Shown here: piece after piece, positions 43,272 through 46,142 of the stretch | Numbering within the stretch: position 1 is the first letter of the stretch | Layout of the letters: each line of letters opens with the position of its first letter | Source of the DNA: an uncultured Candidatus Saccharibacteria bacterium | GTDB taxonomy: Bacteria; Patescibacteriota; Doudnabacteria; UBA920 | DNA length: 64,000 bases | NCBI GenBank assembly: GCA_964474825.1 | Contig: CAYYWQ010000001.1 | Location: forward strand, 613,609 to 677,608 | Direction of reading: 5' to 3' | Position numbers and translations under genes: made by a program | The notes under the pieces: model-generated | Told to the model about the DNA's origin: nothing | Databases searched by the model: none | What the model saw: only the letters and a program-made list of their open reading frames with translations

Positions 43272-46142
43272 TTAAACTACAAAATTAATAAGGCGATTTG
43301 GCACAAAAATTACGCGCTTAACAGTTTGGTTTTGGACTAAAGACGAAACTTGTTGTTTAACATAATCTTCATTACTGCCTTGGGGTACTGTAATTTTAGT
43401 TTTAACTTTGCCGTTAATTTGCACCACGATTTCTACTGTGTCATCTACGGTTAATTTTTCGTCATGTTCAGGCCAAGCTTCTAACTGCAAAGATTTTTTC
43501 CCGCCAATAATTAAATGCAATTCTTCGGACATATGTGGAGCGAATGGGTAGAGCAATTTTAAAAACGTACTTACAAACTCCTTAGACACCGGCTCGTCCT
43601 TAGTTTGGTTATGGAATTCCATAAACGCGGAAATACAGGTATTAAAATGATACTGTGTTATGTCTTCAGTAATTTTTTTAGTTAGCTTATGCAAATGCTT
43701 TTGCGCTTTTGGGGAATTGGTGGCAAATTTTTTATTTGCTTCTAAATCGTTTACCCAAAACCAAATTCTGTCTAAGAATCTTTTAATACCCACAATGCCC
43801 TGGGTCATCCATGGCTTGGCATCTTCCAATGGACCCATAAACATTTCAAACATGCGCAGGGAGTCTGCGCCAAATTGCTTAACCACGTCGTCCGGGTTAA
43901 TTACGTTTCCCCGGCTCTTAGACATTTTTTCGCCGTCAGGCCCTAAAATTAAACCAATGTTGCGCAGCTTTAAAAACGGCTCACCAAAATCCAGCATTTT
44001 TAAATCGCGCAAGGCTTTAACAAAAAACCTGGAGTAAAGCAAATGAAGCACCGCGTGTTCAGCGCCGCCAATGTAAGTGTTCACAGGCAGCCACTGTTTT
44101 ATTTTTTTAGCAGAGGCAAATTCCTTTTTGTTGTTAGGGTCTGTGTAGCGCAAAAAGTACCAGGAGGAGTCCACAAAAGTGTCCATGGTGTCGTAGTCGC
44201 GCTCGGCCGGTTTTTTACAAACCGGACAAGTAACTTTTTTAAAACTTTTGGAGCGTTTTAAAGGAGACTCCCCAGTTGGCCTAAAGTCTACGTCTGTAGG
44301 CAGTTTTACAGGCAAATCTTTTTCCAGAACAGGCTGCTCACCGCAGTCTTTACAATAAATAATAGGTATAGGCGCGCCCCAGTAGCGCTGCCTCGAAACC
44401 AGCCAGTCGCGCAGTTTATATTTAGTAGTGAGCTTGCCGAATTTTTTTGCAATGCCTATTTTTGCCTGCGCTATGTCTTGACCGGTAAATTCATTGGACT
44501 CAATTAACTTTTCCTGCTCGTTCACTACCTGCTTAATAGGTAATTTATATTTTTCCGCAAATGCCGCGTCACGTTCGTCATGCGCGGGCACAGCCATAAT
44601 AGCTCCGGTACCGTAACCCATAAGCACGTAATCTGCCACCCAAATGGGGACTTTTTCTTTAGTGGCCGGATTAATGGCAAAAGCGCCTTTTAACTCTACG
44701 CCGCTTTTTTCTTTTTCCAGCGCTGAACGCTGAAGTTCTGTTTTACTTTTTGCCGCCTCAATGTAAGCAAAAACTTCCTTGGAATTTTCCACGTGCCTAG
44801 CAATGGCTTTGGCTGTAGGATGCTCCGGAGCCAAGACCAAATAAGTTGCGCCAAAAATAGTGTCGGGCCTTGTTGTAAAAACTTTTACATTTCCTAAGGC
44901 AACATTTAAAACCTCCGGCTCCTCTGTAGCGGTAAAATGCGGGTTTTGTGCCTTAAATTTAAACAAGCTGAAATCAAGATTTTTCTCAAAAGCTTCGCCG
45001 TCCGTTATAGGTACAACATAATCGCTGCTGTCGTAAAGCAAAGTAAAGCAGGTATTTTTTTTAATAACGTCAAAATTAAAACCTTTATTTAAAGCAGCTT
45101 CAACAGAAGGCCTTTTTTTGCCGTCTAGAAAGTTTGCGGAAAAGGGTGTAGAAACTAGTACTACACGATTAAGCTTTATTCCCTGTTCCAAAAGCCTTAA
45201 GGCCACCACGCCGCCAAAAGAATGACCAATAACTACAGTTTGCTCGTCTAAAGTACAATTATTTTTTACAAATTCCGCCTGCTCAACATCGCCGGGCTCG
45301 TTGGGGTTCGGCATAGCCGGCACCTGAACTTCAAACCCCTTGCTTTCTAATTCTTTTTTTAGCCAGGGAATAAAATTTTTCTCCGGGCCTCCGCCGCGGC
45401 CATGCAAAATTACATAGCGCTTTACCGGCGGCTGGGCTAAGGTAAAATCTATTTCCGCGCCCATGCTCTTGCCTATCCAGTTGCGCTGCATAAGCTTTAT
45501 TGGGTCCGGCCAATCTAAATTATTTAACTCGGACAACAACTCTTCAGCGTAATCTGTAATTTTAAAAAACCATTGCGAAAGATTCTTTTGCACAACAGTG
45601 CTACCGCAGCGTTCACATTTGCCGTCTATAACCTGCTCATTAGCAAGAACAGTATTGTCTTTAGGGCACCAGTTAACCGAAGCTTCTTTTTTGTAAGCCA
45701 AGCCTTTTTTGTATAGCTGCAAAAACAGCCACTGCGTCCATTTATAGTAAGAAGGGTCGGAAGTATTAACTTGCCTGCTCCAGTCATAAGAAAGCCCCAG
45801 ACTTTTAATTTGCTCTGTAAAACGTTTAATATTTTTTTGCGTGGTTTTTTGCGGATGAACCCCTTCTTTTATGGCATAATTTTCCGCGGGCAAGCCAAAA
45901 GCATCCCAACCCATTGGGTGCAAAACATTTATGCCGCGCATACGGCTATAACGGGAAAGAATGTCTGTAGCAGTATAACCTTCCGGGTGGCCAACATGGA
46001 GACCGGCCCCCGAAGGATACGGGAACATGTCTAAAATATACTGCTTTGGCCTTTTGTCAACGTCTTTAGCCTGAAAAGTTTTCTTGGTTTCCCAATACTT
46101 CTGCCACTTTTTTTCAATTTTAATATGATCGTATTTTTTCAT
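43272..46142 (-). CDS. leuS: leucyl-tRNA synthetase with an inserted RBBP9/YdeN-like alpha/beta-hydrolase domain
   Basis: Track ORF 43272-46199; preferred start is the ATG at 46142 ([17 protein letters not shown], 4 nt after the tatD stop); HVGHPEGY class-I motif; about 175-aa insert (nt ~44910-45431) between EIDF and KVFTTRPDT carrying [28 protein letters not shown] and the nucleophile elbow GHSFGG. Confidence 0.9.
   Translation of the reverse strand: [956 protein letters not shown]

Follow-up and report, generated by a model that had tools for sequence, protein, structure and literature searches.

The leucyl-tRNA synthetase (LeuRS, encoded by leuS) on the minus strand of the 64,000-nucleotide stretch of contig CAYYWQ010000001.1 analyzed here (the window) carries a long insert at the entry to its CP1 editing domain, and sequence matches together with structural models indicate that this insert is a complete, compact and lid-less alpha/beta serine hydrolase domain of the RBBP9/YdeN type, nested in CP1. 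The domain is apparently catalytically intact, with activity predicted from its conserved residues. It is not a one-off but one allele of a phylum-wide cassette that has been repeatedly gained, lost and swapped. Residues are numbered below on the 975-amino-acid open reading frame (ORF), strand positions in the AlphaFold2 (AF2) model follow a start at Met20 (M20 numbering), and positions within the insert are numbered separately. The features that define the insert, including those located with a hidden Markov model (HMM), are as follows.

45444..45482, minus strand: last host segment before the insert, amino acids 240-252, first strand of the CP1 hairpin (anchor search, junction alignment and AF2 strand E225-236 in M20 numbering)
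44898..45425, minus strand: residues unique to insert-bearing LeuS, amino acids 259-434, about 176 residues (alignment against 21 insert-less LeuS)
44910-45431, minus strand: HMM-defined hydrolase domain, amino acids 257-430 (domain HMM match)
45210..45227, minus strand: nucleophile elbow GHSFGG, amino acids 325-330, aligning with the RBBP9 Ser75 region
45219-45221, minus strand: codon of the predicted catalytic Ser327, aligned to RBBP9 Ser75
45021..45023, minus strand: predicted catalytic acid Asp393, within DSSDYVVP, aligned to RBBP9 D137/D138
44937..44939, minus strand: predicted catalytic His421, within NPHF, aligned to RBBP9 His165
45111..45131, minus strand: FLDGKKR loop, amino acids 357-363 (insert positions 101-107), with the motif F-x-D-x3-R, equivalent to the RBBP9 loop L103-R109

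The insert occupies the tip of the first CP1 beta-hairpin, to which it is joined by short linkers, and ends seven residues before the editing motif TTRPDT. A sequence-only reading of this DNA had proposed a genuine in-frame domain insertion at the CP1 entry, and the placement holds in each respect: the ORF is uninterrupted over 43272..46199, the translation quoted for 44910-45431 was reproduced, and the alignment with other LeuS is collinear on both sides of a junction that is far longer than usual. It measures 183 residues in the window protein vs. 6 in Thermus thermophilus LeuRS, and 188 residues vs. 11 in insert-less LeuS of the candidate phyla radiation (CPR) when counted between the anchors WIGxSxGxEIxF and (V)FTTRPDT. 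The same reading had recognized a PF06821-type fold with a GHSFGG elbow, and this identification is supported by sequence matches in the PDB, by AF2 and by Foldseek. RBBP9 (E=1.1e-12, query 5-171 to chain 6-171) and YdeN (E=5e-9) both match the insert over their full length, while an AF2 model of the domain alone, built from an alignment of inserts, reached a pLDDT of 98.3 and a pTM of 0.93. Foldseek aligned this model to RBBP9 with a TM score of 0.86-0.87, a root mean square deviation of 2.2-2.3 Å and about 29% identity, and to YdeN with a TM score of 0.83, the remaining alpha/beta hydrolases scoring 0.72 or below. The expectation of Pfam hits within the synthetase was borne out in part: Abhydrolase_1 (30.0 vs. 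a cutoff of 25.8 bits) and Ser_hydrolase PF06821, the DUF1234 family (22.1 vs. 22 bits, barely over), are reached by the insert segment by itself, but both fall under their cutoffs within the full-length protein (25.3 and 18.6 bits). A Ser-His-Asp triad had been suggested as a check on the structural model, and alignment to RBBP9 gives a complete one, formed by Ser327, Asp393, and His421. The domain HMM found no second copy of the hydrolase domain in the 64-kb window.

Conservation among the embedded copies is that of an enzyme. The Ser nucleophile and the His are each invariant in 124/124 embedded copies, and the nucleophile is kept in 100% of every host class. The acid column holds Asp in 101 of the 124, and the others have Asp or Glu within 1-3 residues. 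Close insert pairs have a dN/dS of 0.06-0.19 which, together with the invariant Ser and His, argues that the domain is under selection as an enzyme.

A survey of LeuS orthologues in related lineages, which the sequence-only reading had recommended, shows that the insert is widespread: LeuRS with the domain number in the hundreds among Patescibacteria, and they carry it at five or more sites. At the window junction (site A) it is carried by about 75 of the best 120 LeuS relatives listed, all of them Patescibacteria/CPR where a taxon is named, although the sample was retrieved with an insert-bearing query and its counts are not the insert frequency among CPR LeuS. Database records place the carriers in Doudna-, Sung-, Kaiser-, Kerfeld-, Uhr-, Komeili-, Campbell-, and Magasanikbacteria as well as Paceibacterota. 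Judged by best matches only, the source of the window is itself a Patescibacterium, with Candidatus Doudnabacteria as the nearest relatives that bear a name. Site B is a variable loop inside CP1, site C lies just past the second Cys-knuckle (CxxCG) near query residue 620, site D is in the anticodon-binding domain near query residue 822, and a further position, upstream of the anchor, is occupied in P0088. Two copies of the domain, at sites A and B, are present in the LeuS P0011. Insert-bearing LeuS loci were also seen in metagenome-assembled genomes labeled Gammaproteobacteria and Bdellovibrionales (L025 and L038); their resemblance to CPR LeuS makes mis-binning of the contigs or mislabeling of the bins the probable explanation, rather than true presence beyond Patescibacteria.

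The range of hosts was drawn from an exhaustive phmmer search against 1.84 billion representatives, which returned 1656 matches, 336 of them below 1e-10. Such a search was needed, as word-indexed look-ups starting from the insert or from a diverse profile gave few free-standing proteins and missed the LeuRS copies. The matches were a mixture of LeuRS-embedded domains, free-standing proteins of ~180 amino acids and rare copies inside other housekeeping proteins, namely SecA, TsaD, AlaRS, ValRS, Der/EngA, UvrB, Adk, Ham1, and peptidase S51 (representatives P0145, P0168, P0180, P0158, P0222, P0223, P0184, P0238, and P0240). Each of these hosts other than LeuRS is known from one cluster representative that has no taxon label, although several were seen in multiple sources; several copies have host domains on either side, and those in TsaD, AlaRS, ValRS, Der, and UvrB lie inside the host protein. 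Scans seeded with two subtypes gave the balance between hosts. A genome scan with the window's own subtype placed 38/38 CPR loci in LeuS, and a metagenome scan with the commoner GHSLG subtype recovered 82 copies, comprising 77 in LeuS, five free-standing and none in other hosts. The hydrolase clade is found almost only inside Patescibacteria LeuRS, with the majority of its copies at site A.

By nearest neighbors, the copies at site C, at site D and in P0088 derive from site-A copies, and those in SecA, ValRS, TsaD, AlaRS, and Der are also closest to site-A copies. The copies in UvrB, Adk, Ham1, and S51 and those at site B derive from free-standing types. Free-standing copies that belong to the same clade exist as well (L125 and L136). 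Tandem or double copies occur in P0128, P0228, and P0011, the first of which is a free-standing two-domain protein of 350 amino acids with halves of different subtypes. Free-standing YdeN-like genes also lie upstream of insert-bearing LeuS in L161 (nt 2661-3245, immediately upstream) and in L087 (nt 1690-2256, about 1 kb away). They are only 30-33% identical to the embedded copy and are therefore not recent duplicates; with two of 80 loci, a neighborhood link between free-standing YdeN-like genes and LeuS is possible.

The history of the insert is not that of its host. In a tree of the host sequence only, built by neighbor-joining on p-distances, LeuS with and without the insert are mixed throughout. 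Pair by pair, the divergence of the insert is almost uncorrelated with that of the host (r=0.16), whereas the coefficient is 0.57-0.86 for uninterrupted stretches of host sequence equal in length to the insert, and still 0.75 for a control made up of the 174 fastest host columns. Individual pairs illustrate the disagreement.

P0004/P0005: host distance 0.079, insert distance 0.40
P0012/P0016: host distance 0.094, insert distance 0.47
P0027/P0040: host distance 0.159, insert distance 0.78
P0005/P0006: host distance 0.145, insert distance 0.094

As the last pair demonstrates, hypervariability is not an inherent property of the insert. Exchange is illustrated by P0027 and P0073, two genes at syntenic loci that share about 99% identity once CP1 is left aside. 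In P0027 the hydrolase fills site A and site B is empty, whereas in P0073 site A is empty and site B holds an ANT(2'')-like nucleotidyltransferase. Their codon-aligned nucleotide identity is about 0.90 along the gene, drops to 0.57-0.69 only in the 40-60 codons beside each site and is back to 0.87-0.89 in mid-CP1. This mosaic fits separate short recombination tracts, each of which would import or remove a cassette plus a little flank. A single ancient insertion followed by purely vertical descent is ruled out by the interspersed tree, the low correlation, host pairs 8-16% apart whose inserts are 40-78% apart, and the mosaic itself.

Mobile-element explanations were considered and rejected. Terminal inverted repeats or a target-site duplication bracketing 44898/45431 were not found, the search returning only short scattered matches, and a transposon or an element resembling a miniature inverted-repeat transposable element is thereby ruled out. 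An intein is likewise excluded, since there is no conserved Cys/Ser/Thr or Asn at the junctions, where columns are variable, in line with the lack of intein junction residues noted in the sequence-only reading, and the fold is that of an alpha/beta hydrolase and not Hint. The best-supported route that we infer from the overall pattern is homologous recombination, in which cassettes are exchanged by way of the highly conserved LeuS sequence on either side; it is favored because the diverged tracts are short and neither terminal repeats nor intein residues are present.

The hydrolase is not the only enzyme domain to occupy these loops. Site B in relatives holds a NUDIX domain (PF00293), a methyltransferase like TehB/Methyltransf_23, a domain resembling ANT(2'') (PF10706) or another copy of the hydrolase, with examples in P0004 (amino acids 540-700), P0036 (560-770), and P0073 (365-550). 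The PF10706 match, to an aminoglycoside-2''-adenylyltransferase-like family, scores 23.5 vs. 21 bits. The equivalent loop of the window LeuS is short, at about amino acids 559-565 (~44505-44525). Some LeuS of 1120-1290 amino acids carry inserts at two or three sites.

What the hydrolase might act on is suggested by its closest characterized relative. Human RBBP9 is a serine aminopeptidase that needs a free alpha-amine and cleaves the aminoacyl bond. Single hydrophobic amino acids, Leu/Ile among them, form acyl-enzyme adducts with it, and the authors of PMC8866121 consider that its substrates may be amides, esters or thioesters. The adducts with Leu/Ile make a leucyl-bond substrate a concrete hypothesis for the LeuRS insert. 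Mapping of residues to RBBP9 here relies on sequence alignment through loops, with the RBBP9 residues as named in the same paper (PMC8866121). The hydrophobic cage of RBBP9 (Y99, L103, F140, and L141) corresponds to F97, F101, V139, and V140, all of which are hydrophobic. Ten positions are conserved in the LeuRS clade and differ from YdeN and free-standing proteins (E50, Q51, V55, V76, A77, F101, D103, R107, E171, and P172). Three of these, F101, D103, and R107, fall within the loop equivalent to the RBBP9 substrate loop, and are found in 82, 78, and 79% of site-A copies vs. 24, 23, and 10% of free-standing relatives, respectively.

Any such activity would operate beside an editing site that is itself intact. 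The sequence-only reading had entertained the insert as an extra or a replacement editing activity, and the second option is not supported: the CP1 motifs TTRxDT and AHDxRD are invariant in 77/77 aligned LeuS regardless of the insert, which rules out replacement of a degenerate CP1 site and means that any role of the insert is additional. We propose that the insert serves LeuRS chemistry as a tethered hydrolase that acts on hydrophobic aminoacyl bonds, a reading that we favor while placing it somewhat short of an even chance. It draws on the RBBP9 chemistry, the near-exclusive association with LeuRS, the clade-specific pocket loop and the intact CP1 site. Under this proposal the domain would act autonomously, attacking, as RBBP9 does, acyl bonds made by hydrophobic amino acids and passing through an aminoacyl-Ser intermediate, and would clear LeuRS-related aminoacyl species alongside CP1 and not in its place. 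Candidate substrates would be mis-acylated tRNA(Leu), released non-cognate aminoacyl-adenylate or similar leucyl esters and amides, and the domain would constitute a dispensable accessory module to CP1.

Several observations weigh against this proposal. Members of the clade are accommodated at no fewer than five LeuRS sites, including one in the anticodon-binding domain that is far from both active sites, which argues against strict geometric coupling to the CCA end. Related copies are found in SecA, TsaD, Der, and UvrB, proteins to which aminoacyl-tRNA chemistry does not matter, and frequent loss in close relatives shows that the domain is dispensable. Glu108, the alpha-amine anchor of RBBP9, is replaced by Lys in a variable column, with D103 and R107 conserved close by. 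Among host residues, nothing convincing was found to co-vary with insert presence except a linker Pro. A wider proposition, that Patescibacteria LeuRS loops, above all the two CP1 loops, are exchange sites for enzyme cassettes (serine hydrolase, NUDIX, methyltransferase, and ANT(2'')-like) spread by homologous recombination, with the hydrolase as a LeuRS-specialized second proofreading or detoxifying site, is put forward as a tentative one, and taken as a whole it is doubtful.

The main rival to a LeuRS-serving hydrolase is a passenger whose general housekeeping role would have nothing to do with LeuRS, e.g., a scavenging aminopeptidase or esterase, lodged in permissive loops on the surface of large, essential proteins, with LeuRS simply the most tolerant and most easily recombined host. 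This is a real possibility, if not a probable one. A passenger would account for the family's presence in nine kinds of other housekeeping host, from SecA to peptidase S51, for the free-standing members of the same clade, for the occupation of five or more unrelated LeuRS sites, for frequent loss without host co-adaptation, and for the unrelated enzyme domains (NUDIX, methyltransferase, and ANT(2'')-like) in the second CP1 loop. It sits poorly with the extreme host bias, as 77/82 and 38/38 copies lay in LeuS in scans seeded with different subtypes, and with pocket-loop residues that are common to LeuRS copies at different sites and rare in free-standing ones. The non-LeuRS hosts are moreover rare, and several of their copies are derived from the LeuRS clade.

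Detoxification tethered to its target is a further alternative, in which the domain would protect LeuRS by cleaving the aminoacyl-N/-O bond of natural leucyl-adenylate mimics or other LeuRS inhibitors in the manner of MccF. MccF-type serine peptidases act on processed microcin C. No inhibitor is known for these organisms. A role driven by conflict would explain the sporadic distribution, the allele replacement and the recombination tracts, and would suit a chemistry, that of RBBP9, which consists of aminoacyl-bond cleavage requiring a free alpha-amine. The other CP1 cassettes also come from families that modify small molecules (NUDIX, TehB-like methyltransferase, and aminoglycoside-2''-adenylyltransferase-like). 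A comparable arrangement is recorded in NCBIfam as an IleRS with a GNAT domain, "ileS_w_GNAT" (NF040702), a precedent for a class Ia synthetase bearing a small-molecule-modifying enzyme domain. Gene context gives no evidence for such a role, however, and the low dN/dS shows no sign of diversifying selection in close pairs; overall we regard detoxification as unlikely.

Far less probable is a structural or regulatory role without catalysis, for instance as a docking surface or a CP1 stabilizer. RBBP9 was first described as a binding protein, and the short linkers and confident full-length AF2 model suggest a fixed appendage, but the invariant Ser and His, the retained acid and purifying selection over the whole domain are at odds with a loss of catalysis, and the swapping of alleles 40-78% divergent between near-identical hosts makes a conserved interface unlikely. 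Least credible of all is an artefact or self-removing element (an assembly chimera, intein or intron) missing from the mature enzyme: a patchy distribution at a single precise site in conserved housekeeping genes does resemble that of inteins, but the frame is continuous, there are no splice residues, Hint fold, terminal repeats or target duplications, and the assembly chimera that the sequence-only reading had raised against itself is ruled out by a 100%-identical LeuS (P0003) that is present both on a 1.21 Mb NCBI contig and on a Logan contig from an independent assembly (SRR14271372), by more than 130 LeuS from unrelated metagenomes with the domain at the same junction, and by hundreds of homologues overall.

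Comparison with known systems brings out what is unusual about the LeuRS-borne hydrolase. Human RBBP9 (PDB 2qs9, 7oex, and 9fcr) resembles the insert in its lid-less fold, in the order and positions of Ser, Asp, and His, and in its hydrophobic acyl-pocket positions. It is, however, a free-standing eukaryotic protein, whereas the insert is nested in another enzyme; its Glu108 and Ser76 are not conserved in the insert, in which the F-x-D-x3-R loop takes the place of the RBBP9 loop and the LxCxE motif is absent. Bacillus subtilis YdeN (PDB 1uxo) is of the same size as the insert, has the same triad and matches it over the full length (TM 0.83), but it too is free-standing and the LeuRS clade departs from it at about ten conserved positions. 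Bacterial LeuRS of T. thermophilus (1h3n/2bte) and Escherichia coli (4aq7/4arc) have the class I and CP1 motifs in common with the window LeuS and are collinear with it. They have 6-11 residues in the first CP1 hairpin where the window LeuS has a 176-residue enzyme domain, and the window LeuS is without the leucine-specific domain.

Under the proposed mechanism alone, the insert would follow the same logic as the trans-editing factors AlaX, YbaK/ProX, and D-Tyr-tRNA deacylase, that of an extra hydrolase beside the synthetase's own site. Those factors are separate proteins of unrelated fold and chemistry, none of them an alpha/beta hydrolase with Ser-His-Asp catalysis. Inteins and Rickettsia palindromic elements are in-frame insertions scattered through housekeeping genes. 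The cassette is like them in being patchy at precise sites in essential genes and incongruent with host phylogeny, but it has no Hint fold, splice residues, palindromic or repeat termini, or homing nuclease, and unlike them it is a selected enzyme, predicted to be catalytically intact, that is retained in the protein.

Both parts of the protein belong to known families, bacterial LeuRS and the RBBP9/YdeN hydrolases, and insert-bearing proteins are already in public databases, annotated simply as leucine--tRNA ligase. The nested architecture, its Patescibacteria-wide spread and the cassette dynamics appear to be undescribed; no description of a LeuRS-hydrolase architecture was found in the full-text literature searched, which is absence of evidence within that literature only. 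Synthetase editing is thought to rest on a few folds, namely CP1, the second additional domain, INS/YbaK, DTD, and B3/B4. A Ser-His-Asp hydrolase in the CP1 of hundreds of LeuRS would therefore be either a new synthetase-associated hydrolytic site or the clearest case of an exchangeable enzyme cassette within an essential gene. If it does form a second proofreading or detoxifying site, it would represent a previously unrecognized class of synthetase-borne quality control based on Ser-His-Asp chemistry. These findings are also relevant to the way in which CPR bacteria, streamlined and host-dependent as they are, keep and exchange accessory functions.

Apart from the insert, the window protein is, by its sequence, a canonical LeuRS of the bacterial type, in which the synthetic motifs and those of CP1 editing are intact. 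The features of the host gene are listed below, with conservation taken from alignment A1 of 77 LeuS.

43272..46199, minus strand: LeuS ORF, 975 amino acids in the longest reading (ORF list, TIGR00396, uninterrupted frame)
45987..45998, minus strand: HIGH-type class I signature HVGH, amino acids 68-71 (translation; columns invariant in A1)
43914..43928, minus strand: KMSKS class I signature, amino acids 758-762 (translation; M, S, and K invariant in A1)
44859..44876, minus strand: Thr-rich CP1 editing motif TTRPDT, amino acids 442-447, seven residues beyond the insert (T, T, R, D, and T unchanged across the 77 sequences, insert-bearing or insert-less)
44568..44585, minus strand: CP1 editing motif AHDERD, amino acids 539-544, aligned with T. 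thermophilus AHDQRD and holding the universally conserved editing Asp (D, R, and D invariant in A1)

The model TIGR00396 (leuS_bact) scores 1022.4 bits vs. a cutoff of 548.4 on this protein, in two stretches split by the insert, and PF13603, the CP1 editing domain, scores 184 bits. Collinearity with T. thermophilus LeuRS (Tt) extends over query residues 20-254 (Tt 1-236) and 438-753 (Tt 243-579). The missing leucine-specific domain (Tt about 580-636) is evident from query residues 753-758 (~43929-43943), which span Tt 579-637. A full-length AF2 model has a pLDDT of 90.7 and a pTM of 0.80, with 91-97 in the insert region, and its LeuRS body superposes on solved bacterial LeuRS with a TM score of 0.81-0.85, normalized to the target.

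The start given by the longest ORF is probably mis-set. The true start is likely M20 at 46142, which would give a protein of 956 amino acids, since homologues and T. thermophilus LeuRS align only from Met20 (MKKYDHIK), and since 46142 abuts the upstream TatD-like ORF (46147..46986) whereas a start at 46199 would overlap its end at 46147. A public gene call begins at Met10 (966 amino acids). Directly downstream of LeuS lies an ORF of 323 amino acids (42297..43268) with only a weak squalene/phytoene-synthase match (PF00494). The gene order MetRS, TatD-like, LeuS and then, further downstream, an MFS transporter is conserved in related contigs (window 41143-48775; L001-L003), while the intervening genes vary.

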